NCBI GenBank assembly: GCA_963704145.1
Contig: CAVPHB010000002.1
Location: 67,878-131,877, forward strand
Direction of reading: 5' to 3'
Source of the DNA: an uncultured Chloroflexia bacterium
GTDB taxonomy: Bacteria > Chloroflexota > Limnocylindria > Limnocylindrales > CSP1-4
DNA length: 64,000 nucleotides
Position numbers and translations under genes: made by a program. Positions 7,867 to 63,841 of this stretch are shown piece by piece; the first letter of the stretch is position 1, and every line of letters starts with the position of its first letter. The notes under the pieces are model-generated. The model saw nothing but the letters and a program-made list of their open reading frames with translations, was not told where the DNA came from and made no database searches.

Positions 7867-7867
7867 G

Positions 7868-20894: not shown

Positions 20895-21860
20895 CTAGTG
20901 CCGGTACCAATCCTCGGCGATCGGCGCATCTGATCGCGCGAACGCGGCGGCCTCGGTCCACGGCCGCGCCGCGCCGTCGATGAGCGCCGCCAAATCGGTC
21001 AGCCGACGGTAGGCCACGTCGCGCAAGAACGATTCGCGCTCACCGGCGGCCGTCGTCGTCGCCTCGGCCCAGATCGCCCGACCGGCGGCGACACCGCTCG
21101 CGCCGGCCGCGCACGCGACTGTCACCTGGGCGTTGAAAGTCTCGGGGTCGGCGCCACCGGACAGCAGCACCCACGGGATCGAGACCACCGAATTGAGCTC
21201 CGCGCAGGCGTCATGCCATAGCCGCCGGTCGGTCACCGACAGGTCGTACGGGAACTCGACCTTCAACACGTCGACGCCCAGTCCGCCCAGCCGGCGGGCG
21301 GTGTCGATGACCGCCCGCCGCCGGTCCTCGCCGGTCAGCCGCTGACCGTCGAGCGGCGAGAACGTCAGCGGCTCGAGGAAGAGCGGCAGCTCGAGCTCGC
21401 GGCACTGCCGGGCAACTGACTCGACCAGCTGCTCCTGCCGCGCAGCCGATAGCGCGTCCGGGTGGTAGTAGACGAGCAGCTTGGCCGCCGAGGCGCCCAG
21501 CCGGCGGACGCTTTGCGGTCCCCAGCCGTCGAGCAGCCGGCTGGTTCGGTCGGTCGCTGGGCCGAGATAGCCGGTCGCCTCGAGGGCGACGATCAGCCCG
21601 ACTGAGCCGGGCATCGAGCCATCGGCAATGCACTGCGGCGCGCCGTATTCCGGATCGAGCAGAACGCCCGTGGCAGCGTCGCCGATGGCGCCAACCACCT
21701 GGCGCTTGAAGTCGGTCAACTCGGTGCCGCTGACCGTGGCTGGGCTGGCCGGCCTGAGGTCACGACGGAGGTTCTGGCGATGGTCGAGCGCCAGGATGGT
21801 GAACGTTCCGCGCCGCGAAGCGCACTCGCTCAGGCCGCGCAGGATGCCGAAGGGAGTCAT
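20895..21860 (-). CDS. Class I aldolase of the LacD/YihT family (tagatose-bisphosphate / sulfofructose-phosphate aldolase-like)
   Basis: ILALDHRQNLRR, LTDFKRQV, VLLDPEYG, KLLVYYHPD, LFLEPL, DVLKVEFP, PWVLLSGGAD and AGASGVAAGRAIWAEA are collinear with my memory of E. coli YihT/LacD. ATG at 21860 (MTPFGIL). Confidence 0.7.
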   Translation of the reverse strand: MTPFGILRGLSECASRRGTFTILALDHRQNLRRDLRPASPATVSGTELTDFKRQVVGAIGDAATGVLLDPEYGAPQCIADGSMPGSVGLIVALEATGYLGPATDRTSRLLDGWGPQSVRRLGASAAKLLVYYHPDALSAARQEQLVESVARQCRELELPLFLEPLTFSPLDGQRLTGEDRRRAVIDTARRLGGLGVDVLKVEFPYDLSVTDRRLWHDACAELNSVVSIPWVLLSGGADPETFNAQVTVACAAGASGVAAGRAIWAEATTTAAGERESFLRDVAYRRLTDLAALIDGAARPWTEAAAFARSDAPIAEDWYRH

Positions 21861-21954
21861 CGGCGGCCCTCCTCTTTGCCGACCGGCTTGGCTGACCAGA
21901 TTACGCACCGGGCGCCGCTTGCGCCGGCGCTGGGTATTCTGCTATACCTTCGCG

Positions 21955-23049
21955 GTGACCGTCAAAAGTGCGCGCACAAATGTGCAGGCGGGGCAGGCTG
22001 ACGCACTGTTCGTTGATATTGCGCAGGCCTACTACGAGCAGAACCTGACCCAGCAGGAGGTCGCCGCGCTGTTCGGCATCTCGCGGACGCAGATCTCGCG
22101 CTACCTGCGTGAGGCGCGGGAGCGCGACATTGTCCAGATCCGAGTTGTCCGGCGCGGCGCGCGGGTCGCTTCCGTGGAAGCGGACCTCAGGCGCCATTTC
22201 GTCCATCTGCGCGAGGTGGTCGTGGCCGCCGTGTTCAGCGACGACGAGGCCATCCGCCGGCGGGCCGTGGCACGCGAGGTGGCGCGCCTGCTCGAGCACA
22301 GCGTGCGGCCGAACACGACCATCTGCTTTGGCGCGGGCCGGACGCTGGCCGAAGCAGTCAACGTGCTCAAGCCGCGCCGGCTGACCGGTGTCACTGTCGT
22401 CCAGGCACTGGGCAATGCCGGCCATGAGGCGCTGCACATCGACTACAACGCCGTTTCGAGCGCTGCTGCGGCCGCCTTCGGCGGGCGGGTGGTGCAGATC
22501 AACGCGCCGGCCATCCTGGGCCGCGGCATGCGCGCGGCAGATCTGGAGGCGTCCAGCCCGCAGATCCGCACTGCGATCGCGGTCGCCCGCGGCGCGCAGA
22601 TGTTCGTCCTCGGCCTGGGCTCGATGAGTGGCGATCAGATCTACGTCCAGACCGGCCTGGTCTCGCCGGCCGAGCTGGACGAGGCCAAGCGCGGCGGCGC
22701 CGTGGGCGATATCTGCGGCAACTTCTACGACCTGGCCGGCCGGCCGCGCCCCGGTCCTTTCGCCGACCGGGTGGTCGGCATCCGCCTGTCCGACCTGGCG
22801 GCTGCGCCGACATCGATCGGCTGCGCCAGCGGCAGCGAGAAAGTGCCATCGATTATCGGCGCCCTCGAAGGGCGCTACCTCAATGTCCTGGTGACCGACG
22901 AGCTCACCGCGCTCGGTGTGCTCGAGTCCATCGGCGATCGATCGCCGTCGTCACGAGCCGACCGCTTGTCGTCGAATGGCCGGGTGGGCCACGAGGCGGA
23001 CGCAGTCGGTGGGGAGGTTCGACCAGGGGGCGCCGAAGGCAGGCGATAA
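21955..23049 (+). CDS. SorC/DeoR-type sugar-phosphate-sensing transcriptional regulator
   Basis: HTH (LTQQEVAALFGISRTQISRYLREARERDIV) plus a sugar-binding domain (VQALGNAGH..., GDICGNFYD). GTG start at 21955. Divergent from the aldolase gene. Confidence 0.8.
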   Translation: MTVKSARTNVQAGQADALFVDIAQAYYEQNLTQQEVAALFGISRTQISRYLREARERDIVQIRVVRRGARVASVEADLRRHFVHLREVVVAAVFSDDEAIRRRAVAREVARLLEHSVRPNTTICFGAGRTLAEAVNVLKPRRLTGVTVVQALGNAGHEALHIDYNAVSSAAAAAFGGRVVQINAPAILGRGMRAADLEASSPQIRTAIAVARGAQMFVLGLGSMSGDQIYVQTGLVSPAELDEAKRGGAVGDICGNFYDLAGRPRPGPFADRVVGIRLSDLAAAPTSIGCASGSEKVPSIIGALEGRYLNVLVTDELTALGVLESIGDRSPSSRADRLSSNGRVGHEADAVGGEVRPGGAEGRR

Positions 23050-23085
23050 GGCGACTGGGGGCAGCAGGCGACAGAGGAGAGGTCA

Positions 23086-25142
23086 ATGAAACGTTCGTGG
23101 TGGGCCGTATTGGCGGCCCTGGCAATCGTCGTCGCAGCATGTACGAGCACGCCGGCGGCAACACCCACACAGGCACCATCTGGCGCGCCGACGACGGCGC
23201 CGACCGCCGCACCGGCAACTCCGACCGCGGCACCGACCCAGGCGCCGACTGAAGCACCCACGCCGGTGCCGGCGGAGCACGGCAGCGTGCTCGTCGGTCA
23301 GGCCGGCACGGCCGACGACCTGGCACTGTCGGCCGCTGAGTCAACCGCCGCTGCTGCGGCGCTGGCCGGCAAGAAGGTCGGCATCGTCGCGACGACGATG
23401 GAGACCGAGTACCACTCGCTGCTCAACACGACCGCCAAGGAGGCGCTCGAGGCGCTCGGCGCAACGGTCGAGATCTGCGATTCGCAGGTTGACCCCGCGA
23501 CAGCGCTGCAATGCTTCGAGGGCTTCGTCCAGAGCGGCGTGGCCGCGATCATGACCACCAGCTCGGCAGCGACCGTGGGCGAGGCCGCCGAGACGGCCAT
23601 CAACGCGGGCATCATCGTCGTCCAGGTCACCGGGCTCGACCTGGGTGACAGCGGCGCCGTCGGGATCAGCGTCAACAACCTGACCATCGGCCTCCAGGAG
23701 GGTCGCTCAGCGGGCGAGTTCGCCGCGCAGATGTGGCCCGGCGAGGCAGTCCAGGCGATCATCCTCGACTACCCCGACATTCCTGACCTGGTCGCCCGCG
23801 CTGATGCCATCGAGCAGGGCATGGCCGAGACCAACGCGCAGGTCGAAGTCGTCGGTCGCTTCCTCGGCGGACTGGCCGAGAACGGCGTCACCTCGATCGA
23901 GACCGCGCTCCAGCAGTTCCCCAATCTGCGCATCGTCACCGGCATCAACGACGGCGGCAACCTGGGTGCCTACCAGGCGCTCGAATCCGCCGCCAAGACC
24001 GCCGACGACGTGGCCGTCTTCGGCATCGATTGCGATCCGGCTGCGGTCACCCTGATCGACCAGGGGACGATGTACCAGGGCTGCGTCGACACCAACCCGG
24101 CCGGCACAGGCACGCTGGCGGCCAACGCCATCGCCAAGCTGATGGCCGGCACCGACGTCCCGGGCAACATCGAGGTACCCGTTTCGACCTATCAGGGCAA
24201 GGTCGCGGTGGGCAATGGCAACGTGCTTCTGGGCCAGCAGGGCCAGGGATCTGACTTTGCCCTGTCGGCCGCTGAGTCAACCGCCGCTGCTGCGGCGCTG
24301 GCCGGCAAGAAGGTCGGCATCGTCGCGACGACGATGGAGACCGAGTACCACTCGCTGCTCAACACGACCGCCAAGGAGGCGCTCGAGGCGCTCGGCGCAA
24401 CGGTCGAGATCTGCGATTCGCAGGTTGACCCCGCGACAGCGCTGCAATGCTTCGAGGGCTTCGTCCAGAGCGGCGTGGCCGCGATCATGACCACCAGCTC
24501 GGCAGCGACCGTGGGCGAGGCCGCCGAGACGGCCATCAACGCGGGCATCATCGTCGTCCAGGTCACCGGGCTCGACCTGGGTGACAGCGGCGCCGTCGGG
24601 ATCAGCGTCAACAACCTGACCATCGGCCTCCAGGAGGGTCGCTCAGCGGGCGAGTTCGCCGCGCAGATGTGGCCCGGCGAGGCAGTCCAGGCGATCATCC
24701 TCGACTACCCCGACATTCCTGACCTGGTCGCCCGCGCTGATGCCATCGAGCAGGGCATGGCCGAGACCAACGCGCAGCGTCGAACGTCGTCGGTCGCTTC
24801 CTCGGCGGACTGGCCGAGAACGGCGTCACCTCGATCGAGACCGCGCTCCAGCAGTTCCCCAATCTGCGCATCGTCACCGGCATCAACGACGGCGGCAACC
24901 TGGGTGCCTACCAGGCGCTCGAATCCGCCGCCAAGACCGCCGACGACGTGGCCGTCTTCGGCATCGATTGCGATCCGGCTGCGGTCACCCTGATCGACCA
25001 GGGGACGATGTACCAGGGCTGCGTCGACACCAACCCGGCCGGCACAGGCACGCTGGCGGCCAACGCCATCGCCAAGCTGATGGCCGGCGGGTCGGTACCG
25101 AACATGCTCGAGGTGCCCGTCTTCACGTACGCGGGCCAGTAG
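23086..25142 (+). CDS. Sugar ABC transporter substrate-binding lipoprotein with two complete tandem periplasmic-binding (family 1/CUT2-type) modules; second module frame-broken
   Basis: Lipobox (IVVAACTS) and a P/T linker, then KKVGIVATTMETEYH...DCDPAAVTLIDQGTMYQGCVDTNP occurs twice. Copy 2 carries two 1-nt insertions near 24778-24788 relative to copy 1. The final stop is TAG at 25140-25142. Confidence 0.75.
23326..25086 (+). repeat. 936-bp tandem duplication inside the SBP gene; about 825-bp core identical apart from two 1-nt indels, flanks diverged
   Basis: ctgtcggccgctgagtcaacc starts at 23326 and again at 24262. I compared the two copies block by block. They match until gatggccggc (24150 / 25086), then diverge. 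Confidence 0.9.
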
Positions 25143-25169
25143 CCACCTTCGGGTAGTAACAGGCGCCGC

Positions 25170-27343
25170 GTGGATCGTTGGCTCGAAGTAGATATCGACT
25201 GGTTCGGAGACCCACCGTGGGACCGGGCTCAGCTCGAGTTCGTCGAGCGCACCCTGCCGCTGCTGGCCGGGGAATGCGATCTGCGCGGCATCTGCTTCAA
25301 CATCGGCTGGCTGGCCGATCTCGTCACCGAATGGAGCGGCAGCGGCGCTCAGCCGCTGCCGCTCCGCTCTCGTCGGTACGCGCGCTGGGCTCGCCTGGCC
25401 TATGACGACCTGCGCGCATTCCTCGCGTCGCTGCGTGCGGTCGCCGCATCGCACGGCCTCGCCGATCTCAAGCTCGGGCGTGCTGATCGCCGGTCTCGGC
25501 CAGGTCGTGGCGCCACCCGACACGGGCAGCATGTACGACCTCTACAGCAACTGGTACGACCGCCATCCCGAGCTCTACCCGCTCGACATCTCACCGCTGC
25601 CGGGCCCGGACCTGGACCCGCGCGTGCCGATGCACGCGGACTCGTACCGCTACGTGACGCGCCCCGACGGCATCGCCGAGGGAGAGCCGTTCCCCGAGTT
25701 CTTCGGTGCGCAATGGGGCGCGGTGGCGCAGTATCTCGGACTCGACCTCATCCACCTGCGCGACGGCATGCTGGGACCAATGCTCTACACCCGCGTCGGC
25801 CCGTACGGCAGCGTTGCATCGGCCGATCCGGCCGAGAACCGCAGCTGGACAGACGCCGTCAAGCGCCTGTTCCGCGCCTGCAAGCAGGCCCATCCCGGTG
25901 GACTGGTGATGGCCTATTCGAGCGGCCTCAGCGGCACGGCCGAATGGCTGGCCGGCTGCGTCGATCTCGAGGACATCGTGGCCGATGGCGCCCTCGACAT
26001 CTTCGTCGACCAGACCTGGGGCGGCGCGTGGCAGGACTGGTGGGACGACACCTGGAAGGGCTGGACCTTCCAGCTCGCCTACCTGCTCGGCCACGGCGCC
26101 CAGATAAGGGGCGGCAACGTCGGGCGCAGCGCGACGGGGGGGGCGTTTGGCGGAGCGGCGTGCCGGCAATACAACCTGATCGAGACGTGGGACGGCTGGG
26201 AGCCGTGGGACACGCTGCATGACACACCGGGCAAGCTCGAATGGGCGATCTGGGCCTTCGCGCACGCCTGCAGTGCTGGGCCGCGATGGGCTACCGGTGG
26301 TGCCCGAGGGCGCCTACATCAGCTGGATGAACGACTGGAACAAGCGGCTGATCAGCGCGCGCGACGTCGACTTCCTGGCGTCCAGGCTGGCCGCCGCCGA
26401 GACCAGCGCGGGGGGCATCGAGGCCACGTTCGGTCCGTTGCTTGTCCATGACCGGGACGGGCTGACCGCCAAGTACGAGCAGGACCCGCAGAGCAACGCC
26501 AGCGAGTGGGCCGAGGACCAGGCTGGCATGCTCCTCAAGTGGGGCGCCGGCATGATGACCGCGACGCGCGCCGAGTGGCTGCCCGAGCGCTGGCCGGACG
26601 GCCTGCTGTGGCAGCTCCCCGGGGCTGCCGCCGCGGCCCGCCTCGACGGGCCGTACGGAGCGCTCGTTGCGAGCGGCCGCGCCGACCGGATCGACAGCCG
26701 AGTGCTGGCGGCCGCGGGTGTTGCGCCGACGGGCAACCAGGTGCCCGATGGCTATCGGCTCGGGGCGCCCACCAGCGCCGACCTGGCGCCCGAGGAACGC
26801 GTCCATCTGCCGCAGCGCGCCGAGCTGCGCGCAGAGCAGGGAACGTGGGTCGGCTATTCGTCGGACGGCATGCCGCTGCTCGCCGGACGCCACGGCATCT
26901 ACCACTGGCAGCCGCCCGATCTGGCCGATCCGGGCAACCCGCTGCTGCCCCATTCGCAGATCGGCACCGTCAACCCGTACGTCGAGGTTGCGCGCCTGAT
27001 CAACCGGCGCGCCGCGGAGGCCGGCGGGTTGAGCGTCGAGCCCATGGCGGCGCACGAGCCGGTGACGGTCAGTTGCTGGCGCAGCGACGGACAGGTGCAC
27101 CTGCTGCTGGGCAACCTCGAGTCGGGCTGGATCGGCGATTCGCGTTTTGCGCGCCACGTCACGGTCAGGCTGCCGCGCGCGCGCGTCGGCCTGGAACCCG
27201 GGGTGGCCTACCAGGGCGTCCACCTGAACGGGGGCAATGAGCCGCTCGCGACCGATGACGAGCTCGATGGCTCGGTCGTCTCGTTCACGATCGAGGTGCC
27301 GCCGCAGGGCTGCATCGTCCTGCGCCTGGAGCGGGCGGCGTGA
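25170..27343 (+). CDS. Large (~720 aa) Trp-rich protein of unknown function, possibly a glycoside-hydrolase-like enzyme; two frame breaks
   Basis: Continuous sense reading across track ORFs 25170-, 25402-26451 and 26219-27343, with junctions near 25485 and 26265. Motifs DQTWGGAWQDWWDDTWKGW and NLIETWDGWEPWD. No signal peptide. Sits between the SBP and permease genes. Confidence 0.5.
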
Positions 27344-28322
27344 GCGGCGCGACGACATCTGCGCGCACGTCGGCGGGCCGCCAGCGCATGGTGCGCGTGG
27401 TCGACTTCCTGGCCGACTACGGCTTCATCGTCTTCTTCGCCATCTGGGTCATCTTCCTGTCGCTCATGACGGACGACGTTCTTGACCGAGCGCAACATCC
27501 CGCTCCTTCTGCGCCAGGCGTCGATCTATGCCATCCCGGCCATCGGCGCAACCTTCGTGATCCTGCTCGGCGAGCTCGACATCTCGTTCGGCAGCGTGCT
27601 CGGCGTGGCCGGCGTCGCCGCGGCCGAGGTGCTCGTCGCCGGCCACGACCCGGTCGCTGGCGATCGGGGCGGCGATCCTGGTCGGCGCGCTGGTCGGACT
27701 GGTCAACGGCACGCTGGTGACCTTCTTCCGCATCCCGTCGGTGGTCGCCACGTTGGGCATGCTCAGCGTCGTCATCGGCCTCGGGATCGTCTACACCAAG
27801 GGCCGCGCGATCACCGGGCCGTTGCTCGACCCGATCGACTGGCTGGCCCAGGGCTACATCGGCATCGTGCCGATACCGGTCGTGCTGATGTTCGTGGGCT
27901 ACACGATCGCCTGGCTCGATCCTCAACCGAACGGCATTCGGGCGCCCACGTCTACCTGACCGGCGACAACCGCGAGGCGGCGTTCCGCGCCGGCATCGCC
28001 GTCAATCGCGTGCGCATGACGGTCTTCATCGCGGCCGGCGCACTGGCCGGGCTGGGCGGCGTCGTGCTCGTCTCACGGGTGTCGCAGGCCACCGCGTCGC
28101 TGGGTGACTCGGCACTCTTCCCGGTGCTCACCGCGGTCATCCTCGGCGGCGCTGGCCTGCAGGGCGGACGCGGCCGGATCGAGAACACGCTGATCGCCTC
28201 GGTCTTCCTGGCCAGCCTGCTCAACGGCCTGATCCTGCTCGGGGTCGATGCCGAGTACCAGCGCATCCTGCTTGGCGCGCATCCTGATCGTGGCCATCTC
28301 GCTCGATCGGTTCAGGGACTAG
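27340..28322 (+). pseudogene. CUT2 (ribose/xylose-type) ABC transporter permease, reading frame broken at least 3 times
   Basis: Pieces in three frames: FLADYGFIVFFAIWVIFL / LTERNIPLLLRQASIYAIPAIGATFVIL / FFRIPSVVATLGMLSVVIGLGIVYT / YLTGDNREAAFRAGI...TAVILGGAGLQGGRG...LDRFRD*. The GTG start overlaps the previous stop. Confidence 0.7.
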
Positions 28323-28324
28323 AG

Positions 28325-31298: not shown

Positions 31299-31353
31299 CC
31301 CGCTCATCAACCACAATAGGTTCGACATCGAATTGACATGGAGGAACGCACCA

Positions 31354-32311: not shown

Positions 32312-32312
32312 G

Positions 32313-32604
32313 ATGCAGCTGGCTCGAGTCGTGGGCAGTGCCGTCGCGTCGGTCAAGGAGCCGCGCATGACGGGCATGAAACTGCTCCTCGTGGAGGAGG
32401 CCGCGCCGGACGGCTCGTCCGATGGTGGCGCATACATTGCGGCCGACCTTGTGGGGGCCGGCGAGGGCGAGCTCGTCATCGTGGTGCGCGGCTCACCCGC
32501 GGCCGCGATCAATCGGCATCGACGGCGCGCCGGTCGACGCAGCCATCGTGGCCATCGTCGAGTCGGTCCGCCAGGCCGGCACGATGACGTACGTCAAGTC
32601 CTGA
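32313..32604 (+). CDS. BMC-P vertex protein (EutN/CcmL family); one frame break near 32510
   Basis: MQLARVVGSAVASVKEPRMTGMKLLLVEE...AADLVGAGEGELVIVVRGS continues in another frame as IDGAPVDAAIVAIVESV. Confidence 0.8.
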
Positions 32605-32608
32605 GCAG

Positions 32609-33266
32609 GTGACAGTGGCCAGTCGCGAACTGCGCGCCTACGGGATCATCTCGCGCATGCAGCCGCGCTATGCGGCGTACGAGGCGACCGTGGCTGACGG
32701 CGATATTCCGCTGGCCGGCATGGCTCAGCTGTTCGTCGAGATCGCGCCCGGCAACGAGATCTATCTGCTCGCCGACGCGGCGCTCAAGGCGACCAACGCG
32801 CGGCCCAGCTCGCAGGTCGTGGAGCGCGAATTCGGGATGCTCTCGCTCCACGCCGACGATCCCCAGGAGGTGGCCGAGGCGGGCCGCGTCATCCTCGAGC
32901 GGATCGGGCTGACGATCGAGGATCGGCTGCGCCCAACCGTCGTCTCGCAGAACCTGATCACCAACGTGACCCCCTTTCAGGCACAGCTCATCAACCGCTT
33001 CCGCAAGGGCTCGCTGCTCGTGCCCCAGCGAAACGCTGCTGGTGCTGGAGGTCACGCCGGCGGCGTACGTGCTGCTCGCGGCGAACGAGGCCGAGCGGGC
33101 CGCCGACATCGACATCATCGACGTGCGCCCGATCGGCCGTTTCGGGCGCCTGTATGTCAGCGGTGATGAATCGAGCGTCCGGGCGGCCCAGGAACGCGCG
33201 CTGCAGGCGCTCGAGGACGTGACCGGCCGCGCATCGCCGGCGCAGACGCGGGGCAGTGCCGCATGA
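32609..33266 (+). CDS. Tandem BMC-domain shell protein (BMC-T-like paralog); one frame break near 33030
   Basis: QLFVEIAPGNEIYLLADAALKATNARP...EREFGMLSLH and [51 protein letters not shown]. Collinear with 31647-32311. Confidence 0.7.
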
Positions 33267-33842
33267 GCGGCGGCGGACCCGTGCTGTGGGTCGAGGTGAG
33301 CGATCGCGACGAGCTCGACGCGGCGCGGCGGTCGGGCGCGGCGGCGGTCATGGTCGTGAGCTCAACCAGCACGCTCTACGGCCGTCCGGGCGACCAGCTG
33401 TGCATTCGGATCGGCGAGCGCGATGCCCGTGTGCCGCCGGGCCAGCTGGCGGCGCGTCTGCCCGTTCGGGCCGGCATCCTGTTCCGCCCGACACCAGACA
33501 CGGACGAGCTGGTGGCCGATCTCGCGCGCCGCAGGCGGCCGCTCGCGGCGGACATCAGGAGCCAGGCCGAGGCTCGCCGCGCACTCGACTCCGGCGCGAC
33601 CGCGCTCGTCGTCCACGACCCGGTGCTGGTCCGCGCGCTGCGTGATGAGCTGTCCGGCATGGGCGCGGCCGGTACCGGGCCGGCGAAGGCAGTGCCGATC
33701 ATCGGCGTGGCCGCCGGGAGCGACGCGGTCAACGAGATGCTCGGCGCCGGCGCCCAGGGCCTGCTGGTCAGGGCCGCCGAGCTGCCCGCGCTGCTGGCCA
33801 TGCCTGCCTTCGCCGCGCTGACCGCGCCGTGCGCCGCCCGTC
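33263..33842 (+). CDS. Hypothetical protein (weak beta/alpha-barrel-like repeats); 3' end undefined
   Basis: ATGA overlap with the BMC-T stop. VEVSDRDELDAARRSGAAAVMVV and IRSQAEARRALDSGATALVV look like beta-alpha units. There is no in-frame stop before the ligase gene, so the end coordinate is a guess. Confidence 0.35.
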
Positions 33843-35500
33843 GTGCGCAGCGCAAGCGCCGGCGCGACTCGCGCCTCGGCTCCACGCGGCGCGACCATCG
33901 GCGCGGCACTCGATCGCGCGGCTCGCTCATTCGGACCGCGCGAAGCACTCGTCCACGTAGCGCGCTCGCAGCGCCTGACGTACGCCGAGCTGGCGGCGGA
34001 GGCCAAGAGCGTGGCGCGGGCGCTGCTCGCGCTGGACGTCACGCCCGGCGAGCGCGTGGTCGTCTGGGCGCGCAACGCCCTTGAGTGGCCGCTCATCCAG
34101 CTTGGCGCGGCGTACGCCGGGGTCGATCGTCGCGACGGCCAACGCCAGCCTGTCGGATGAGGAGCTCGAGCAGATCATCGCCAACTGCGGCGCGGCGCTC
34201 CTGTTCGCCGGCGCGCACCGCACACCGCGCACGGCGCTGCTCGACCGGCTGGCCCGTGGCGCCGGCCCGCGTGGCCTGCGCCACGTCGTCGCGCTGCCGG
34301 AGGTCGAGTCCGTGCCCGAGTCGGTCACCGGCTGGGAACAGTTCGTGGCGCGGGCGGCGCAGGTCAGCGAGTCCGACCTGACGCGCTCGGCTGCGCGCAC
34401 CCAATCGGACGACGTGATCATGATCCTGTACACGTCGGGCACCACCGGGCGTGCCGAAGGGCGTCCAGCTGACCCATCGCGCGATGCTCCAGAACGCGGC
34501 CGCCGTGGGCGCCAACATCCGGCTGCTCGACGGCCGATCGCCTGTGCCTGCCCGTGCCGTTCCACCACTGCTTCGGCGCGGTGATGGGCTCGCTCGCCGC
34601 GCTGACCTACGGCGCGACCCTCGTCCTGCCGGCCGAGGCGCTTCGATCCGGGCGCCGTGCTGCGCGCCGCCGCAGGCCGAGCGCTGCACCGCCCTGTACG
34701 GCGTGCCAACGATGTTCGTCGCGCTGCTCGAGCATCCCGATCTGACCCGGACCGACCTCTCCAGCCTGCGCACCGGTATCGTCGCCGGCGCCCCGGTCCG
34801 CTCGAGCTCGGCCGGCGGCTGAGCCACGAGCTGCACCTGCCCGAGCTGGTCGTGGCGTATGGCCTGACCGAGGCTGCGCCGGTCGTCACCCAGACGTCGA
34901 TCGACGATCCGGAAAGTGTTCGCCTGGGCAGCGTCGGGCGGCCGATCCTGGGCGCAGAGGTCCGGGCCATAGATCCGCAGACCGGCGCGGCCGGTCCCGC
35001 CGGGCACGCCGGGCGAGCTGCTGACGCGCGGCCCGATGGTGATGCGCGGCTACTTCGACATGCCCCAGGCCTCGGCCGAGGTGATCGACCGCCAGGGCTG
35101 GCTGCACACAGGCGACCTGGCCACGTACGACCAGAACGGAGTGTGGCGCATCGTCGGCCGGATAAAGGACCTGATCATTCGCGGCGGCGAGAACATCGAT
35201 CCAGCGGCGATCGAGGCCGCCGGTCGGCGCCACCCGGCCGTCGCCGACATGCACGTTGTGGGCGTGCCGTCGGAGTACTACGGCGAGGAGATCTTCGCCT
35301 GGGTGCGCTTGGCGGCCGGTGAGCAGATCGACGAGCAACAACTGCGCAGCCATCTCGAACAGCACCTCGGGCGGTTCGAGGTGCCGCGCTACATCCGCTT
35401 TGTCGACTCGTTTCCGATGACCGAGTCGGGCAAGGTCCAGAAGAACCGCCTGCGCGAGGACGCGCGCCACGCGCTGGCGACCATGTCCGCCGCCGGCGGG
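33843..35500 (+). pseudogene. AMP-forming acyl-CoA ligase (FadD/AMP-binding family), frame broken at least 5 times; true 3' end uncertain
   Basis: [70 protein letters not shown] and SGKVQKNRL appear in order across several frames. The last frame stays open to 36097. Confidence 0.7.
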
Positions 35501-35797
35501 CCGATCAACGCGCCGGTCATCGCGCCGGTCATCGCGCCGGGCGTGGCGCCGGTCGTCGCATGGACGGCCAGCGATGGGCGGCCGCCACTGCCGCTGCTTC
35601 CGCCCAAGAACGCCACGCAGGCCATCGTCGAAGCCGCGAGTGCGGCCCCGGCCGGCGGCCCCGACAGCGACCCCGCCTCGACCGAGCGCCACGGCCCCGT
35701 CCCGGGACCGCGCTCGGCCAACCTCCCACCACGCAGCGGCTGGCACCGGCCCGATGGCCCGGGCTGGCGCTGGCGCCCACGCAAGGAGCTGACTGAC

Positions 35798-37085
35798 ATG
35801 TCGGAGACTGATCGGCCCTCGACCGCGGGTGAAGCGCCCGCTTCATCGGTCGATCTCGACGAGGTCCGCCAGCGCGGGCAGCGCATCAAGACATGGGGCA
35901 TCGTGGGCGACATCCGCGAGCAGATCGAGGCAACCGGCGAAGAGCCGATCATGTACAAGGCGCTCGGCACGCCGTCCCAGACCCAGCACCCGTTCAACCT
36001 GTTCGGCGACATCAGGAGCCAGCCGTCGGCGCTGGCGCGAGACGTTCCAGCACGCCGACGAGATCGCGCAGGTCGCGCGCACGCTCAACGAGCGTGACTT
36101 CACCGGCATCATCGGCCTTGGTTCGGGCACCTCGCAGTTCGTGGCCCAGGTCGCCAACGCCGCGTTCGCGCGTTTCGCGGGCATCGCCGGCGGCGACTAC
36201 GACTCGCAGGCGTTCCTGCGCTACCCGCCGCCGCACGACTACAGCAAGCTGCTGGCGGTCGCCTACTCGGGCAGCGGGAGCACAGTCGACACCGTCGCCG
36301 CTGCCCGCGAGTGCCGCCAGCGCGGCGCCTACACGCTGTCCTTTACGAGCGTCGAAGGCAGCCCGGTGGTGCAGGCCACCGACGCGCGCATCCTGACCGC
36401 GGGTGGCTTCGATACCGGCGGCTCGGACACGTTCCACTACACCACCCGCGTCGCCGCCGCGATCTATCTGGCGCTCGAGCTGGGCAAGCTCCGGCTGCCC
36501 GGAGCGCACGACTACGACGGCCTGCAGCGCCAGCTGCTCGAGACGCCGCGCCTGATGGCCGACGTGTTCGATGCCGTCGACAAGCGCTGCCGCACCATCG
36601 CCGATATGTTCCTCGGCGTGCGCAGCGTGCTCGTCGTCGGCGCCGGTGCGAACTACGGGACGGCCGAGGAGATCGCGCTCAAGTTCGACGAGATGAGCCA
36701 TATCCCGGCCAAGGCAATGTCGCCCGGCCGCCACATCCACGGCGCTCTCGGCCTGACCGAGGAGTCGATCCTGACCGTGCTGGTCGCGCCGCCGGGCGAG
36801 TCCTACGGCGATCTGTACGACATCGCCCGGGTGACCGAGCAGCTCAAGAGCCCGGCCATCGCGATCGTCAGCAACGGCGACGAGAAGATCGCCGATATCG
36901 TCGACTACGTCATCCGCCTGCCGATGGAGGACGAGACGATCTTCGCGGTCCTCGCCGTGCTCCCCGGCCAGCTGCTGCCGTACTGGTGCGGCGTTGGGCT
37001 CGGGCTCAACCCGGACACGCAGCGCTCGAACGTGCCCAAGCACGCACGGGTGTGGAACATGCTCTTCCCGCCCGGGACGCACTGA
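35798..37085 (+). CDS. Double-SIS-domain sugar-phosphate isomerase/deaminase (AgaS/FrlB/GlmS-C-like) with ~60-aa N-terminal extension; one frame break near 36030
   Basis: AAGGAG RBS before the ATG at 35798. HPFNLFGDIRSQPSAL then (frame change) RETFQH...IIGLGSGTSQF, AVAYSGSGSTVDT, VVGAGANYGTAEEIALKF. Confidence 0.7.
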
Positions 37086-37111
37086 TCGCGCGCGGCCGAC
37101 AGAGCGACAGG

Positions 37112-38188
37112 ATGCCAGGCGACCCCCGGACCGGCGCGATCGGCACGGCCAGCACAGCCGGTGCCGCTGCCGTGCAACGGCGGGTCGCGGTCATCGGTCC
37201 GTTGAACATGGATCTGTTCATGCGCGGGAGCGCGCCACTCAAGCGCGACGAGCTCAACTCGTGGGTCGGTCCGTCCGAAGTCGAGCTGCTCGTCGCCGGC
37301 TCGATCGGCTACACGGTGCAGGTCTTCGCCCGGCTGGGCTGGCACGTCGACGTCTGCTCGACCGTCGGGTCGGATGCGTTCGGGGCAACGATCAGGCACG
37401 AGCTCGAGGCGCGCGGCATCGACTGCCGCCACCTGGCCCAGGCCGACGGCGTGACCGCGATCGCGCTGTACGTGATGCTGTGGGGCGGCACGAAGCGACC
37501 GATGACCTACCGGCTGCCCGGCTTCGAGCCCTGGCCCGACCCGCCGCCGGCGCTCGACAGCGATGCGCCGGCGGACGGCGAACCACCGCTCACGCTGCTC
37601 CATTCGGGTGGCTTGCTGCACTTCCCACAGATGTGGCGGCGCGGCATGGCCGAGCTGTTCGCGCGCACCAGGGCGCGCGGGGTGATGACGTCGATCGATC
37701 CGCAGTTCCCACTGACCGACCTGCCCGCTCCGTGGCTGCCGCACGTCGCCGACGTCGTCGGCCATGCCGATGTGCTGCTGTGTGACGAGCACGAGGGCCG
37801 GATGCTGTTCGAGCAGACGTCGGTCGAGGGGATGATCCAAGCCGGCCACAAGGCCGGGCCGCGCATCGTCGCCATCAAGCGTGGCGCTGCCGGCGCGGTA
37901 GTCAGCGACGGCCGGACGATGATCAGCCAGCCCGCGGCGCACGTCGACCAGGCCCTGGTGCGCGAGGCGGTCGGTGCAGGCGATGCCTTCGATGCCGGCT
38001 TTCTGGACGCACTCGCGGACGGTGCCGACATCGCCACGGCGGTCCGATTTGCGACCGCCGCGGCAGCGGTCAGCCTGGCCGGCCGCGGCGGCGCCGAAGC
38101 GATCGGCGGCCGCGCATCGGTCAACGCGGCGTTCGATCTCGTCCCGGACTCCAGGGCGCTCGAGCCCAGCAGCATGCCGGCCGGATGA
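37112..38188 (+). CDS. PfkB-family carbohydrate kinase
   Basis: Intact frame. C-terminal GAGDAFDAGFL (PfkB signature 2 with catalytic Asp) and VAIKRGAAGAVV. Confidence 0.75.
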   Translation: MPGDPRTGAIGTASTAGAAAVQRRVAVIGPLNMDLFMRGSAPLKRDELNSWVGPSEVELLVAGSIGYTVQVFARLGWHVDVCSTVGSDAFGATIRHELEARGIDCRHLAQADGVTAIALYVMLWGGTKRPMTYRLPGFEPWPDPPPALDSDAPADGEPPLTLLHSGGLLHFPQMWRRGMAELFARTRARGVMTSIDPQFPLTDLPAPWLPHVADVVGHADVLLCDEHEGRMLFEQTSVEGMIQAGHKAGPRIVAIKRGAAGAVVSDGRTMISQPAAHVDQALVREAVGAGDAFDAGFLDALADGADIATAVRFATAAAAVSLAGRGGAEAIGGRASVNAAFDLVPDSRALEPSSMPAG

Positions 38189-39123
38189 TCGTCGGCGTCA
38201 CCCTCGCGCCGGCCGTCGACCGCACCGCCCGCGTCGAGCGACTGGGGTTCGACACCATCCTTCGACCCACGGCGATGCGCGTTCTGCCCGGTGGCAAGGG
38301 CATCAATGCCTGCCGCGCGGCACATCTGCTCGGGGCGCAGGTGGCGACAACGGGCATCGCGGGCGGCCACGCCGGCCGCTGGCTGGTCGAATCGCTGCAG
38401 CGTGAGGGGCTCAACCCGCACTTCGTGATCGTGGAGGCCGAGACGCGGACGACCTACGTCACCACAGATGACGCCGGCCGTTCGGTGCTCGTCTACGAGC
38501 CCAGCCTGGCGATCCCAGCCGACGCCCTTGAGAAGCTGCTCGAGCTGCTCCGGACGGACCCGCTCAGCTCCGCCGAATGGGTGATCTGCTCTGGGTCGCT
38601 GCCGGCCGGGATCGGCGACGACGCGTATGTCAGGCTGGTGCGCGCGGCGCATGACGCGGGCCAGAGATGCCTGATCGACGTGGGCGGGCCGGTGCTCGAG
38701 CGAACGCTCGCCGAACAACCGGACGTGGTCAAGGTGAGCGCGTCGGAGGCCCGGGCGGCAATCGGAGCGCCGGCGCACGCGCGCGCGGCGGACATGGCCC
38801 GTGCGCTGGCTCGCCGCGGCGCACGGCTGGCTGTCGTGACCGACGGACCGCGGGGCGCATCAGCATCGGACGGCCGCCGGTCGTGGACGATCCGTGTGCC
38901 GCGCGTCAGGGCGGTCAACCCAATCGGGGCAGGCGACGTGTTCAACGCCGGGCTAGTCGTCGCGCTCGGCGCCGGCGCGATGAACGAAATGGCGCTCGCT
39001 CGCGCGGCAGCGGCTGCAAGTGCGAGCGTGCTCGAGCTCGGCGCGGGCGAGGTCGATCCAGTGCGCGTGGCCGAGATGCTGCGGCTGGTCGTCGTGCGCG
39101 AGGTGGGTCATGCAGCGATCTGA
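38185..39123 (+). CDS. PfkB-family kinase of the 1-phosphofructokinase / tagatose-6-phosphate kinase (FruK/LacC) type
   Basis: MIVGVTLAPAVDR...LPGGKGINACRA...PIGAGDVFNAG. ATGA overlap with the preceding kinase. Confidence 0.75.
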   Translation: MIVGVTLAPAVDRTARVERLGFDTILRPTAMRVLPGGKGINACRAAHLLGAQVATTGIAGGHAGRWLVESLQREGLNPHFVIVEAETRTTYVTTDDAGRSVLVYEPSLAIPADALEKLLELLRTDPLSSAEWVICSGSLPAGIGDDAYVRLVRAAHDAGQRCLIDVGGPVLERTLAEQPDVVKVSASEARAAIGAPAHARAADMARALARRGARLAVVTDGPRGASASDGRRSWTIRVPRVRAVNPIGAGDVFNAGLVVALGAGAMNEMALARAAAAASASVLELGAGEVDPVRVAEMLRLVVVREVGHAAI

Positions 39124-39200
39124 CGACGCGCGGGCGCTGACCGATCGCGAGCTGGGGCGCCAGATTGCCGATCTCCAGGCCCGCCGTCCCGGCGCCGGAG

Positions 39201-39902
39201 TCAGTTCAGGCGTTCGTCCGCGGCGCCGGCCCTGGACGTACATCGACATCTGGCGCCTCGCTCAGCTGCGCGCCGAACGCGATCGTCGAGGCGGCTGAGC
39301 AACTCACGCGGCTCGAGGCCGCGGAAATCGGCGATCACCAGGGCAGCGCCGACGAGCAGGTCGGGTCGGCCCAGCGACGCGACTCCGACACACGCAGCTC
39401 CGGCCGCGTGCGCCGATGCGATGCCAGCCTGCGTGTCCTCGAAGACGACGCACTGCGCGGCGCGCAGACCAAGCGCATCGGCGCCGGCCACGTAAGGATC
39501 GGGCGCCGGCTTGCCGCGACCGACCCGGTCGTGGTCGACGATGACCTCGAACGCGTCCGCCAGGCCGATGGCGTCGAGGGCAAGCCGGATGTTCGTCCCG
39601 GACGCCGAGCTGACCACCGCGCACGGAACCCGAGCGGCGAGCGTGGCGCGGACGAACTCAGCCGCGCCGGGTATGGGACGCAGTGCGGCGCCGGCAGCCA
39701 CCTCGGCGCGTTTGTCGTCGATGCCGGCGGCGACGAGGTCGGCCGCCGCAGCTGGATCGAACGCGAAGACGTCGGTCAGCACGTCGAGCGTCCGCCGCCC
39801 GAACATTCGATCGACTATCTCGCGATCGGTGAAGGACAGCCCGCGTTGGGCGGCGAAGGAGCGCCAGCCGGTCATGACCAGCGCGTGCGTGTCGACCAGC
39901 AC
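39201..39902 (-). CDS. HAD-superfamily phosphatase (beta-phosphoglucomutase-like subfamily); true start upstream of the track start
   Basis: SSASG (motif II), GKPAPDPY and VVFEDTQAGIASAHAAG (motifs III/IV). Motif I, FDLDGVLVDT, begins in frame at 39903-39923 with no canonical start codon before it. Confidence 0.65.
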   Translation of the reverse strand: MLVDTHALVMTGWRSFAAQRGLSFTDREIVDRMFGRRTLDVLTDVFAFDPAAAADLVAAGIDDKRAEVAAGAALRPIPGAAEFVRATLAARVPCAVVSSASGTNIRLALDAIGLADAFEVIVDHDRVGRGKPAPDPYVAGADALGLRAAQCVVFEDTQAGIASAHAAGAACVGVASLGRPDLLVGAALVIADFRGLEPRELLSRLDDRVRRAAERGARCRCTSRAGAADERLN

Positions 39903-39961
39903 CCCATCGAGGTCGAACAGGAAGCCCGAGATCGGGTCCAGCGGGCGGGACGGGCGCGAGG

Positions 39962-40765
39962 TCAGGCCTCGCGTGCCGCCGACGTGGCCAGGCCGGCGAT
40001 CATGCGCACGATCTCCTCGTGGTCCGTGTCGGTCGTGTCGCGCACGCCGGCGAGCCGGCCGAGGCGCATGACCGCGATGCGGGTGGAGAGCGTGAAGACG
40101 TGGTCGAGGTTGTGGCTGACGATGATCTGGGTCAGGCCGCGCTCGGCCAGGCGGCCGATCAGGCTCTGTACGCGCGCCGCTTCCTGCAGCCCGAGCGCCG
40201 CCATCGGCTCATCCATGATCAGGATGCGCGAGCCCCAGTGGACGGCACGGCCGATCGCGATCGCCTGGCGCTGGCCACCCGAGAGGCGGCGCACCTGCTG
40301 GCGAACCGACGGGATGTTGACGTTCAGGTCGGCCAGCGCTGCGGCCGTCTCGCGCCGCATCCGGCCCGTGTCGATGTACCGGAACGGGCCCCAACCGCGA
40401 GTCAGCTCGCGGCCCATGAAGAGGTTCTCTGTCACATCCCGGTGATCTGCCAGGGCCAAGTCCTGATAGACGGTTTCGATGCCCGCCGCACGCGCGGCCG
40501 CCGGGCTGCCGAAACGCATCGAAACGCCGTCGACCTCGAGGTTGCCCTGGTCGGGGTGAAGCACGCCGGCGAGCATCTTGATCAACGTGGTCTTGCCCGC
40601 GCCGTTGTCGCCCACCAGCGCCGTAACGGTGCCCGCCGGAAACTCGAGGGTGACGTCCTGGACCGCGTGGACACCGCCGTACGCCTTGGAGATACCGCGC
40701 GCCGCCAAGAGCGGGACGGCGGCAACCACGGTCGAGCCGTTGGCGATCTGCATCGGCTGCTCCAC
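39962..40765 (-). CDS. Sugar ABC transporter ATP-binding protein (single NBD)
   Basis: GDNGAGKTT (Walker A), LSGGQRQAIAIGRA (signature), ILIMDEP (Walker B). Intact frame. Confidence 0.85.
   Translation of the reverse strand: MEQPMQIANGSTVVAAVPLLAARGISKAYGGVHAVQDVTLEFPAGTVTALVGDNGAGKTTLIKMLAGVLHPDQGNLEVDGVSMRFGSPAAARAAGIETVYQDLALADHRDVTENLFMGRELTRGWGPFRYIDTGRMRRETAAALADLNVNIPSVRQQVRRLSGGQRQAIAIGRAVHWGSRILIMDEPMAALGLQEAARVQSLIGRLAERGLTQIIVSHNLDHVFTLSTRIAVMRLGRLAGVRDTTDTDHEEIVRMIAGLATSAAREA

Positions 40766-62102: not shown

Positions 62103-63841
<1,739 letters not shown>

Follow-up and report, generated by a model that had tools for sequence, protein, structure and literature searches.

A bacterial microcompartment module integrated in a probable amino-sugar operon of soil Chloroflexota and Dormibacterota

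A single conserved locus in which amino-sugar-type catabolic genes surround a bacterial microcompartment (BMC) shell module occupies positions 20895–41935 of a stretch of DNA from an uncultured Chloroflexia bacterium (GenBank assembly GCA_963704145.1, contig CAVPHB010000002.1, positions 67,878–131,877 of the forward strand; the whole stretch of 64,000 nucleotides is referred to here as the window). In our judgement the locus belongs to an uncatalogued type of metabolosome, integrated in an amino-sugar operon and distinguished by an unusual core of aldehyde dehydrogenase (ALDH) and acyl-CoA synthetase (ACS) and by an unusual fused protein, the putative cargo. Raw lists of open reading frames (ORFs) from this 64-kb DNA, which has about 70% G+C, are swamped by false frames; genes were called by third-position G+C and each plausible frame was scanned against Pfam and NCBIfam. 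From left to right the locus comprises a DeoC/LacD aldolase (minus strand), a SorC regulator, a Peripla_BP_4 binding protein, a 2.2-kb gene resembling glycoside hydrolases (GH) of family GH42 and a BPD_transp_2 permease; then a PF00171 ALDH, an iron-containing alcohol dehydrogenase (Fe-ADH), two BMC-H genes, a BMC-T gene, a EutN/BMC-P gene and a second BMC-T gene; and finally a TIM-barrel/AMP-binding/AMP-binding_C/double-SIS gene, two PfkB kinases (PfkB1 and PfkB2), a HAD phosphatase and a single-domain ABC ATPase (both minus strand) and a luciferase-like oxidoreductase. A sequence-only reading of the same DNA had described sugar-utilisation genes wrapped around a BMC core, and the Pfam and NCBIfam scans recovered all of the genes it named where it had placed them, including the BMC-H, BMC-T and EutN genes at 31014–33266.

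Scanning for the SIS protein in one genome per species gave 80 loci, which were compared with the proteins of the window by tblastn (loci are numbered L001 onwards; L001 and L081 are the same contig). Thirteen loci share the order GH-like gene, permease, ALDH, Fe-ADH, BMC-H, BMC-T, (BMC-P), BMC-T, N-terminal domain, ACS, SIS, PfkB1 and PfkB2, followed by HAD and ATPase on the opposite strand, and five further contigs from ENA, JGI and Logan (L081, L082, L085, L086 and one JGI contig) display the same order preceded at the 5' end by SorC and the binding protein. This amounts to about 18 contigs, from metagenome-assembled genomes (MAGs) of Chloroflexota and Dormibacterota; the nearest SIS relatives come from soil MAGs labelled uncultured Chloroflexia (86–89% identity), from other Chloroflexota and from Candidatus Dormibacterota. 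As neighbouring genes from SorC to PfkB2 overlap by 1–4 nt or abut in L085 and L086, we infer that they form a single transcription unit; a scan for promoters and terminators found nothing exceeding chance. The sequence-only reading had allowed that sugar and shell genes might prove unlinked in related genomes, or that the sugar enzymes might form an ordinary cytosolic pathway with the shell independently regulated. The linkage is present in every orthologous locus that could be inspected, and intact orthologs have one operon of overlapping genes, in which SIS is fused to a protein encoded directly after the shell; neither possibility is thus borne out. That this is a real, conserved and co-transcribed sugar–BMC unit is a conclusion in which we have high confidence.

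The sugar genes also occur without the shell. Outgroup operons in Anaerolineae, Spirochaetota and Actinobacteria (SIS 51–61% identity) have the importer, GH, SIS and PfkB1 genes and no shell; it follows that the operon is the older element and that the shell module was inserted into it, at a point exactly between permease and SIS. One locus, L004, carries SorC, binding protein, GH, permease, SIS, PfkB1 and the opposite-strand ATPase, while shell, ALDH, ADH, ACS, PfkB2, HAD and aldolase are missing all together. As a neighbour-joining tree nevertheless puts its SIS within the shell-bearing clade, L004 is most simply read as having lost the entire lower pathway secondarily and in one step. The strongest argument for PfkB2 and the aldolase acting together with the compartment is that these modules occur, or are missing, jointly, which also lends some support to the idea that the aldolase supplies an aldehyde to it.

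The most distinctive product of the locus is encoded directly after the shell genes. The SIS gene listed by the sequence-only reading is indeed present, but as the 3' part of a 3.8-kb gene (33263..37085, plus strand) that also encodes a TIM barrel and an ACS domain, both of which had been overlooked; the SIS domain is thus physically joined to the protein encoded next to the shell. Four segments follow one another on the plus strand: an orphan TIM barrel (33263–33850), an AMP-binding ACS domain (about 33885–35500), a Pro/Trp-rich linker (about 35500–35850) and an AgaS/GlmS-like double-SIS domain (about 35860–37085). The fusion is not peculiar to the window, whose copy is fully collinear with that of L001: PF00501, PF13193 and PF01380 are matched within one ortholog product, the SIS frame is free of stops for 1,150–1,570 codons upstream in 11 of the 13 loci, and a search of 5.8 billion proteins (NCBI, JGI, ENA and Logan) returned 39 homolog clusters with this architecture, none informatively named. 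Complete members have 1,081–1,263 aa, seemingly shorter ones being frameshifted copies, and the fused SIS domain starts exactly at the point where SIS begins as a separate protein in L004 and in distant loci.

The N-terminal domain (140–200 aa) is modelled by AlphaFold2 (AF2) as a compact (beta/alpha)8 barrel (pLDDT 90.6), for which the nearest structures found by Foldseek are small transaldolases, thiamin-phosphate synthase and indole-3-glycerol-phosphate synthase (TM 0.6–0.65, 15% identity). The invariant residues in an alignment of 35 sequences are Trp, Arg, Tyr, Gly, Pro and Ala. A role as a class I aldolase of the FSA/transaldolase type, as the top Foldseek matches might suggest, was rejected, there being no invariant Lys, Asp, Glu or His in these sequences; our guess is a non-catalytic or phosphate-binding scaffold. 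The domain has 11 matches among 1.84 billion representative proteins, those listed being the product encoded in the window itself, two proteins that are members of the fusion family or fragments of them, and some short proteins without characterisation. The ACS domain is nearest to feruloyl-, 4-coumarate-, oxalyl-, malonyl- and medium-chain acyl-CoA ligases and to NCBIfam PRK12583. In the linker, of about 110 aa, the motif LPLL..K followed by RPPRPGWxRPxxPxWxW is conserved; stand-alone SIS proteins do not have it, and it is unlike the amphipathic helix of the usual encapsulation peptide. Since ALDH, ADH, aldolase and PfkB2 carry no extensions, the parts of the fusion protein that are specific to the shell-bearing lineage are the only candidates for encapsulation signals.

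Pfam recognises two stretches of the SIS part (PF01380). Set against the isomerase domain of GlmS (1moq), it has GTS, SGSGST, ALKFDE and HIHG at corresponding positions, with the equivalents of GlmS Lys485, Glu488 and His504 and the Ser/Thr phosphate loop all kept; the C-terminal Lys (in NVPK) lies beyond the alignment and was paired by eye only. Judging from the retention of the phosphate loop and of these catalytic equivalents, the SIS part is most likely an active amino-sugar-6-phosphate/ketose-6-phosphate isomerase-deaminase. In the PDB it matches the isomerase domain of GlmS (7e-23) and glucosamine-6-phosphate deaminase far better than the FrlB-like deglycase 3eua (3e-7). PfkB1 (37172..38188, plus strand; PF00294, 116 bits) received no specific assignment in NCBIfam and PDB searches, and adjoins SIS in 80/80 of the loci inspected, Asgard archaea included. 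The pair is kept at 46–52% identity, with neither importer nor shell, in Asgard MAGs (Promethearchaeota, Atabeyarchaeia, Sigynarchaeum, Hermodarchaeota and others; L058–L061, L063, L066, L069–L071, L074, L075 and L077). PfkB2 (38185..39123, plus strand) appears to be a LacC/FruK-like ketose-phosphate kinase: it matches TIGR03168 at 220.8 bits (cut-off 216.4), falls below the equivalog cut-offs of LacC and FruK, and has as its best PDB match the LacC tagatose-6-phosphate kinase 2awd (4.7e-33). It is present in 12 of the 13 BMC loci, and absent from L004 and from distant loci without a BMC. The HAD-IA phosphatase (39201..39902, minus strand; PF13419) resembles beta-phosphoglucomutases and sugar phosphatases, its matches to TIGR02009 and to sugar-phosphatase models lying below their cut-offs. 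The double SIS, two PfkB kinases and HAD phosphatase of the earlier list are thus all accounted for.

The class I aldolase of the DeoC/LacD family at 20895..21860 (minus strand) is intact and divergent from SorC, and its attribution to the LacD/YihT family by the sequence-only reading stands: PF01791 is matched at 97.9 bits over residues 21–265, and NF009498 at 247.9 bits against a cut-off of 184. The annotation of NF009498, 'tagatose 1,6-diphosphate aldolase', is a name and not a tested function, and the protein fails the LacD equivalog TIGR01232 (86.8 bits, cut-off 432). Its best PDB matches are 8TNF, a DUF2090 protein (2e-40), YihT (1e-34) and LacD (6e-29), which places it in a LacD/YihT/DUF2090-like subfamily, and its segment LKVEFP aligns with the Schiff-base lysine segment YKVEMP of YihT and with the DUF2090 structure; a literature search on 8TNF returned no relevant paper. 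Orthologs occupy the same left-end position in L081 and L082, while in L012 and L086 the aldolase fills the HAD position of other loci, flanked by PfkB2 and the ATPase. Identity between the two positional groups is only about 50%, and the left-end group is 65–69% identical to aldolases unlinked to any shell, which together suggest more than one event of recruitment or placement for this enzyme.

Aldolases 59–61% identical to that of the window are also found in the shell-less operons L087–L089. These soil operons contain GH4, a CUT1 ABC transporter, a GntR/UTRA regulator, SIS, an amidohydrolase (Amidohydro_2), aldolase and two PfkB genes, and probably represent an uncharacterised amino-sugar pathway of their own. 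In a JGI contig (L084) SIS–PfkB is followed by GatZ/KbaZ. The logic of the tagatose-6-phosphate/galactosamine route, which the sequence-only reading had recognised, fits the GlmS-type residues of SIS, the LacC-like PfkB2, the GatZ/KbaZ of relatives and the cytosolic operons with GntR that combine SIS, an aldolase homolog and two PfkB kinases; on these grounds we lean, by a modest degree, towards an amino-sugar/tagatose-type route for the sugar genes. The locus has no deacetylase, which favours a free amino sugar as the substrate. An operon of Microcella sp. (L083; CP075524.1, 7062–15448) has SorC, binding protein, GH, permease and PfkB with a flavin amine oxidase (PF01593) in the place of SIS, and downstream a PucR regulator, a class-III aminotransferase, an ALDH and a luciferase-like gene.

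The shell gene set is small, with one or two BMC-H, two BMC-T and one BMC-P in the window and its orthologs, and shell genes of both PF00936 and PF03319 are clustered with enzymes, the arrangement by which a metabolosome is recognised. BMC-H 1 (31014..31298; this and the other shell genes are on the plus strand) is atypical, without a PRPH-like motif (PF00936, 64.9 bits); it is 80% identical to its L081 ortholog and missing from some orthologous loci. BMC-H 2 (31354..31650; PF00936, 93.3 bits) is the conserved main hexamer, with 86–94% identity across 13/13 loci. BMC-T 1 (31647..32311; frame change near 31815) is a CsoS1D-like tandem-domain protein whose orthologs carry PF27545 (CsoS1D_N), and BMC-T 2 (32606..33266; frame change near 33000) is its paralog, with orthologs matching PF27545 and PF00936. 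Between them lies the sole pentamer gene of the locus, a EutN/CcmL-type BMC-P (32313..32604; PF03319, 69.2 bits; frame change near 32530), with orthologs of 84–97 aa.

Upstream of the shell genes, the NAD(P)-dependent ALDH (28331..29825, plus strand; PF00171, 580 bits; frame change near 29700–29740) is of the ALDH1/2/BADH class. Its best NCBIfam matches are BADH and StyD (betaine-aldehyde and phenylacetaldehyde dehydrogenases), its 498-aa L081 ortholog matches PDB 4o6r and human ALDH2 over the full length at about 1e-144, and the motifs ELGGK (Glu268) and GEICTAG (Cys302) can be read in the translation. By homology it would be acid-forming and not CoA-acylating; no CoA-acylating ALDH of the PduP/EutE type with an encapsulation peptide is present in the locus, there being no extension of at least 15 aa. 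The adjacent Fe-ADH (29852..30996, plus strand; PF00465 and PF25137; frame changes at about 30795 and 30860) stands beside ALDH in all loci and may recycle NADH; its L081 ortholog of 380 aa is best matched in NCBIfam by ErcA and lactaldehyde reductase, both under their cut-offs. Among the ORFs scanned across the 64-kb window and in orthologous contigs we found no phosphotransacylase (PduL PF06130 or Pta PF01515), and likewise no RpiB (PF02502), PduS or additional BMC-P.

The regulator and importer are largely as the sequence-only reading had described them. The SorC/DeoR-type regulator, predicted to sense sugar phosphates (21955..23049, plus strand; PF04198 Sugar-bind, 175.7 bits, plus a helix-turn-helix), is the first gene of the long operon and is 73% identical to its L081 ortholog counted from 21955. 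The transporter genes assigned to 23086–28322 are there, while the 2.2-kb GH42-like gene within that interval and the tandem doubling of the binding protein had gone unseen. Two tandem Peripla_BP_4 modules, revealed by Pfam and by repeat comparison, make up the lipoprotein-type CUT2 binding protein (23086..25142, plus strand); each repeat unit spans about 936 bp, and in the window the DNA of the two copies is 98.7% identical. L081 encodes an intact double binding protein of 696 aa (6692–8782) whose copies are 97.1% identical, and the proteins of L082, L085 and L086 have a single module (340–360 aa). The two genomes differ by about 25% at the level of protein, yet the repeats inside each are nearly identical, which looks like concerted evolution or repeated recent duplication.

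The CUT2 permease (27340..28322, plus strand; BPD_transp_2) has four frame changes in the window and intact orthologs of 322–329 aa in L081, L082, L085 and L086. The CUT2-type ATPase (39962..40765, minus strand; PF00005; 267 aa) is convergent with the operon, in the same position and on the same strand in all BMC loci and in L004, and it is confirmed as the opposite-strand member of the transporter. It has one ABC domain as against the usual fused pair of about 500 aa, and its best NCBIfam matches are the N-terminal halves of YtfR, AraG and RbsA; in distant relatives of the locus the ATPase either has two ABC domains or lies between permease and SIS on the same strand.

The GH42-like gene (25170..27343, plus strand) encodes a three-domain protein of about 720 aa that has no sequence match in Pfam (Glyco_hydro_42 included), NCBIfam or the PDB and belongs to a family of about 300 homolog clusters, every one named 'hypothetical'. 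The AF2 model of its ortholog P0241 (pLDDT 93.9) has the three-domain architecture of GH42, and Foldseek relates it to GH42 beta-galactosidases (1.5e-16; TM about 0.5, 12% identity), a GH164 beta-mannosidase and archaeal exo-beta-D-glucosaminidases. From the modelled fold we propose that it is a cytoplasmic GH42-like exo-glycosidase of an unnamed family.

At the right end of the locus lies a gene for a luciferase-like and possibly F420-dependent monooxygenase (41072..41935, plus strand; PF00296), a possible accessory gene whose membership of the locus is uncertain: it is adjacent in L001 too (80% identity) and is not beside most other loci. A Bac_luciferase-family gene also lies near the related Microcella operon. 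The flanking genes have no connection with sugars or BMCs; among their products are SpoIID, a nitrilase-family protein, an aminotransferase, a PKD-domain protein, DUF5317 and an EAL-domain protein.

We think it probable, taking the mechanism as a whole and with less confidence in its specific steps, that the locus is a metabolosome module within an older operon for an imported amino-sugar-type glycoside. The older part would consist of SorC, the CUT2 importer, the GH42-like exo-glycosidase, PfkB1 and the GlmS/AgaS-like double-SIS deaminase/isomerase; the added part would consist of the ALDH2-type ALDH, Fe-ADH, the shell genes, a TIM barrel–ACS unit fused in frame to the N-terminus of SIS, the LacC-like PfkB2, and aldolase and/or HAD. 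A glycoside, presumably of galactosamine or glucosamine, would be imported and then hydrolysed, and PfkB1 would phosphorylate the amino sugar. The sugar phosphate would enter via the large pores of BMC-T, and the SIS domain, located at the shell or inside it, would carry out deamination and isomerisation; PfkB2 would then phosphorylate the ketose phosphate and the aldolase would cleave the product. An aldehyde of this lower pathway would be oxidised to the free acid by ALDH, with part of it reduced by Fe-ADH so that NADH is recycled, and the fused ACS domain would form an acyl-CoA. ALDH and ACS may in this way replace the CoA-acylating dehydrogenase and phosphotransacylase of classical metabolosomes.

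Several observations weigh against this scheme. Cleavage of tagatose-1,6-bisphosphate gives only glyceraldehyde-3-phosphate and dihydroxyacetone phosphate, with no obvious need for an ALDH2-type enzyme, nor would triose phosphates be expected to serve an ACS most closely related to enzymes for medium-chain or aryl acids. The set of SIS, two PfkB kinases and aldolase runs without a shell in L087–L089, so cleavage by the aldolase does not by itself call for encapsulation. ALDH, ADH, aldolase and the kinases carry no classical encapsulation peptide or extension, the TIM barrel with which SIS is fused has no invariant Lys, His, Asp or Glu in the 35-sequence alignment, and sequence matches do not allow a substrate to be assigned to the binding protein, the GH-like protein or PfkB1. 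The proposal of the sequence-only reading that an aldolase-derived aldehyde is the encapsulated intermediate is therefore left as a supposition, favoured by the co-occurrence of shell, PfkB2, HAD and aldolase and disfavoured by the triose phosphates expected from tagatose-bisphosphate; its caution that the aldehyde cannot be named from sequence alone is upheld.

The main rival reading divides the operon between two pathways, a cytosolic amino-sugar/tagatose route and a shell in which an aglycone alcohol freed by the GH42-like enzyme is oxidised by ADH, ALDH and ACS in turn. It has the merit of employing all three enzymes in one coherent linear chain, it suits an ACS closest to feruloyl-, 4-coumarate- and medium-chain acyl-CoA ligases and PRK12583 and an ALDH whose top families include phenylacetaldehyde and betaine-aldehyde dehydrogenases, and it agrees with the shell-less operation of SIS, aldolase and two PfkB kinases elsewhere. 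However, it leaves unexplained both the fusion of ACS to SIS and the joint gain and loss of PfkB2, aldolase and HAD with the shell module; shell-less operons with the same GH have no ADH, ALDH or ACS; and two NAD-reducing steps in the shell would allow no internal recycling of the cofactor. We consider it rather unlikely, albeit the strongest of the alternatives to an amino-sugar metabolosome.

Amadori compounds are broken down by two known routes, through a deglycase or through an amadoriase, and the substrate could be a fructosamine of this kind, with PfkB1 as a FrlD-like kinase and SIS as a FrlB-like deglycase that releases an aldose-6-phosphate and an amine. PfkB1 does match fructoselysine 6-kinase weakly (66 bits), SIS has its weak match to the fructose-amino-acid-6-phosphate deglycase 3eua (3e-7), JGI annotators have named truncated members 'FrlB-like', and the flavin amine oxidase in the SIS place of the Microcella operon parallels the alternation of deglycase and amadoriase. 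Against this, SIS resembles glucosamine-6-phosphate deaminase and the isomerase domain of GlmS (7e-23) far more than FrlB, the GH42-like enzyme, LacC-like kinase, LacD-like aldolase and GatZ/KbaZ neighbours would have no role in fructosamine breakdown, and the locus has no enzyme to turn the released amine into an aldehyde. An Amadori substrate is accordingly improbable in our view.

A different kind of alternative is that the window copy is a decaying pseudogene cluster, its mutations real and the pathway dead in this organism. Protein-guided comparison with L001/L081, used because DNA alignment to that contig (78% identity) is too noisy for placing indels, locates about 21 frame changes, unnoticed by the sequence-only reading, between 24.77 and 36.03 kb (about 1.9 per kb): one in the binding protein, two in the GH-like gene (about 25400–25478 and about 26270), four in the permease, one in ALDH, two in ADH, one in each BMC-T, one in BMC-P and eight in the fusion gene. 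No frame change affects aldolase, SorC, the two kinases, HAD, ATPase or the luciferase-like gene, and the SIS part is mostly intact. This concentration in one stretch, beside intact genes of the same locus, is what decay might look like, and the absence of any frame change from 36.03 to 41.9 kb is a point against assembly error, since random error does not predict such clustering.

Yet the gene segments are completely collinear with L001 and contain no in-frame stops or deletions, and third-position G+C is kept at 0.85–0.95 in every segment. The break in the binding protein consists of two insertions of 1 nt and the same sign, at 24778 and 24785, only 7 nt apart in 830 nt of the second repeat that agree with the first repeat at every other position. 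Each is a single C directly before GTCG and might reflect a sequence-specific base-calling error, for example one linked to methylation; homopolymers were rejected as the cause, as most sites have no runs of 4 or more. Split genes also occur outside the locus (a UvrD-type helicase at 4285–6872, a second ALDH at 58993–60470 and a lactate/malate dehydrogenase, Ldh, at 62801–63409), which indicates indel errors across the assembly, and the same frame defect is seen in loci or proteins of other long-read MAGs from soil (L009, L056, P0040 and P0044). Taken together, the lack of stops and deletions, the intact codon bias, the paired C insertions, the split genes elsewhere and the shared defect make long-read assembly errors the most likely source of the roughly 21 frameshifts, and gene decay an explanation to which we assign a low probability.

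The sequence-only reading had also considered sulfoquinovose catabolism by the sulfo-Embden–Meyerhof–Parnas (sulfo-EMP) route, in which the shell would receive sulfolactaldehyde from a YihT-type aldolase. Structures of sulfofructose-phosphate aldolase are indeed matched by the aldolase of the locus (1e-34), PfkB1 has a weak match to sulfofructose kinase (8e-9), and ALDH and ADH would suit the oxidation and reduction of sulfolactaldehyde. The locus lacks, however, a GH31 sulfoquinovosidase, a sulfoquinovose isomerase and a YihU-type sulfolactaldehyde reductase; the isomerase is a sugar-6-phosphate SIS with an intact phosphate loop, whereas C6 of sulfoquinovose bears a sulfonate; the aldolase is a member of NF009498 and is closest to DUF2090, not YihT, among structures; and related operons carry GatZ/KbaZ. 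This reading does not hold up, and we regard it as very improbable. Even less credible is a BMC of the SPU (sugar-phosphate utilising) type degrading deoxyribose-5-phosphate via DERA: a PF01791 aldolase linked to shell genes and an aldehyde dehydrogenase is common to both (PMC8217296, PMC11585597), but the aldolase here is LacD-like with no DERA among its NCBIfam and PDB matches, there is no PF02502 RpiB and no BMC-Ts, BMC-P is single and not a triplet, ALDH is predicted to be non-acylating, and the authors of the BMC catalogue left the orthologous locus L003 unassigned. Two further candidates were rejected, an LsrF/autoinducer-2-type locus (SorC, CUT2 and PF01791), as FGGY kinase and LsrG are missing and the aldolase matches include no LsrF model, and the RMM, ARO, MIC and BUF2 types of BMC, whose signature enzymes do not match. 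An actinobacterial origin, which the G+C content might suggest, was likewise rejected, the nearest genomes being MAGs of Chloroflexota and Dormibacterota.

If the amino-sugar metabolosome reading is correct, it would tie microcompartments to amino-sugar turnover. Amino sugars form a large pool of nitrogen and carbon in soil. It would also mean that a BMC core can be built from an acid-forming ALDH and a fused ACS in place of the pair of acylating dehydrogenase and phosphotransacylase, that an orphan TIM barrel and Trp-rich linker may attach cargo to the shell where an amphipathic helix is otherwise used, and that there is a new glycoside-hydrolase family with a GH42-like fold. The small shell, with one or two BMC-H, two BMC-T and one BMC-P, would be convenient for reconstitution. 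BMCs are classified by signature enzyme and core chemistry, and this locus type is now represented by about 18 contigs and 39 protein clusters. We suggest, only tentatively, that it may constitute a distinct and so far unclassified metabolosome class of soil Chloroflexota and Dormibacterota, with a signature SIS amino-isomerase/deaminase recruited to the shell through the ACS/TIM-barrel/Trp-linker fusion and not through a helical encapsulation peptide, a core of acid-forming ALDH and ATP-consuming ACS, and an amino-sugar-derived intermediate of a kind not known from any other BMC.

Among known systems, the sugar genes fit the Aga pathway, in which galactosamine-6-phosphate is converted by AgaS to tagatose-6-phosphate, then to tagatose-1,6-bisphosphate and triose phosphates, and whose regulon includes a glycosidase (PMC4694137). 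Shared with the Aga and Lac systems are the order of AgaS-type deaminase/isomerase, LacC-type kinase and tagatose-bisphosphate aldolase (PMC4694137), and a glycosidase in the regulon, which in streptococci is BgaC. In contrast to them, the locus relies for uptake on a CUT2 ABC transporter and PfkB and not on a phosphotransferase system, has no AgaA deacetylase, and has a class I LacD-like aldolase and not AgaY. The fusion of the deaminase to ACS and a TIM barrel, and the shell itself, are further differences, no Aga or Lac locus being known with either.

Supply of an aldehyde by a sugar-phosphate aldolase to an encapsulated dehydrogenase is already a feature of the PVM, ACI and GRM5 types, where the aldehyde is lactaldehyde. 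Theirs is a class II PF00596 aldolase acting in fucose and rhamnose breakdown, whereas the locus has a class I aldolase, a non-acylating ALDH and no phosphotransacylase, and is predicted to act on an amino sugar.

The archaeal chitin/glucosamine pathway proceeds in the order GlmA, glucosamine kinase and GlmD. The locus shares with it a cytoplasmic three-domain exo-glycosidase of the GH-A type (Foldseek matches 8oug, 5gsm and 6jow), a sugar kinase and a double-SIS deaminase; the GH42-like protein differs in having no detectable sequence similarity to GlmA, only its fold (TM about 0.45–0.5), the kinase is of the PfkB family, and the archaeal pathway is shell-less.

In RMM, the amino-alcohol microcompartment of Rhodococcus and Mycobacterium, an amine-bearing substrate is phosphorylated and its amine is then removed to leave a carbonyl compound; the shell includes BMC-H (one or two) and a single BMC-P. 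RMM also has a pair of BMC-Tdp proteins, msmeg_0271 and msmeg_0275, and thus a shell inventory resembling that of the locus, as judged from the supplementary tables and BMC-Tdp tree of Sutter 2021. The APH-type amino-alcohol kinase (PF01636) and class-III aminotransferase/phospholyase (PF00202) of RMM are not in the locus, where the amine would instead be removed from a sugar phosphate by the GlmS/AgaS-type SIS isomerase-deaminase.

The sequence-only reading had thought a class I LacD-family aldolase feeding a BMC to be uncharacterised. The broader combination of a PF01791 aldolase (DERA) with shell genes is already known as the SPU type (PMC8217296, PMC11585597); a LacD-type aldolase with such a shell and enzymes is undescribed. 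SPU loci (Axen 2014; Sutter 2021; Dwyer 2024) share with ours a shell with a class I aldolase of the PF01791 superfamily, sugar-phosphate enzymes, a PF00171 dehydrogenase and sometimes a PF00465 ADH, as well as CsoS1D/CcmP-like BMC-T proteins proposed as gates for sugar phosphates. They differ from it in that the aldolase of the locus is of the LacD/YihT/DUF2090 kind and not DERA, in its lack of RpiB, BMC-Ts and PduS, in the single EutN gene per locus in the window and orthologs as against a BMC-P triplet, and in its ALDH2-like, putatively acid-forming ALDH, its ACS–SIS fusion and the placement of the module inside an operon for an ABC importer and a glycosidase.

A literature search for later descriptions of this BMC type returned nothing relevant, and the supplementary material of the Sutter 2021 catalogue contains no type mentioning PF00294, PF01380 or PF00501 (PMC8217296). 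The shell trees of that catalogue do, however, hold three orthologs from L003 (A2X23_10740, A2X23_10745 and A2X23_10750), in outlier clades and labelled 'bmcType=UA (main) (omitted)': A2X23_10740, the ortholog of BMC-T 1, is placed in the BMC-Tdp tree, and the L003 BMC-P is listed as 'purpleBlue0 outlier' with bmcType UA (PMC8217296). The gene that follows them, A2X23_10755, encodes P0001, a member of the fusion-protein family described here. The locus type was therefore catalogued once, in 2021, and left unclassified.

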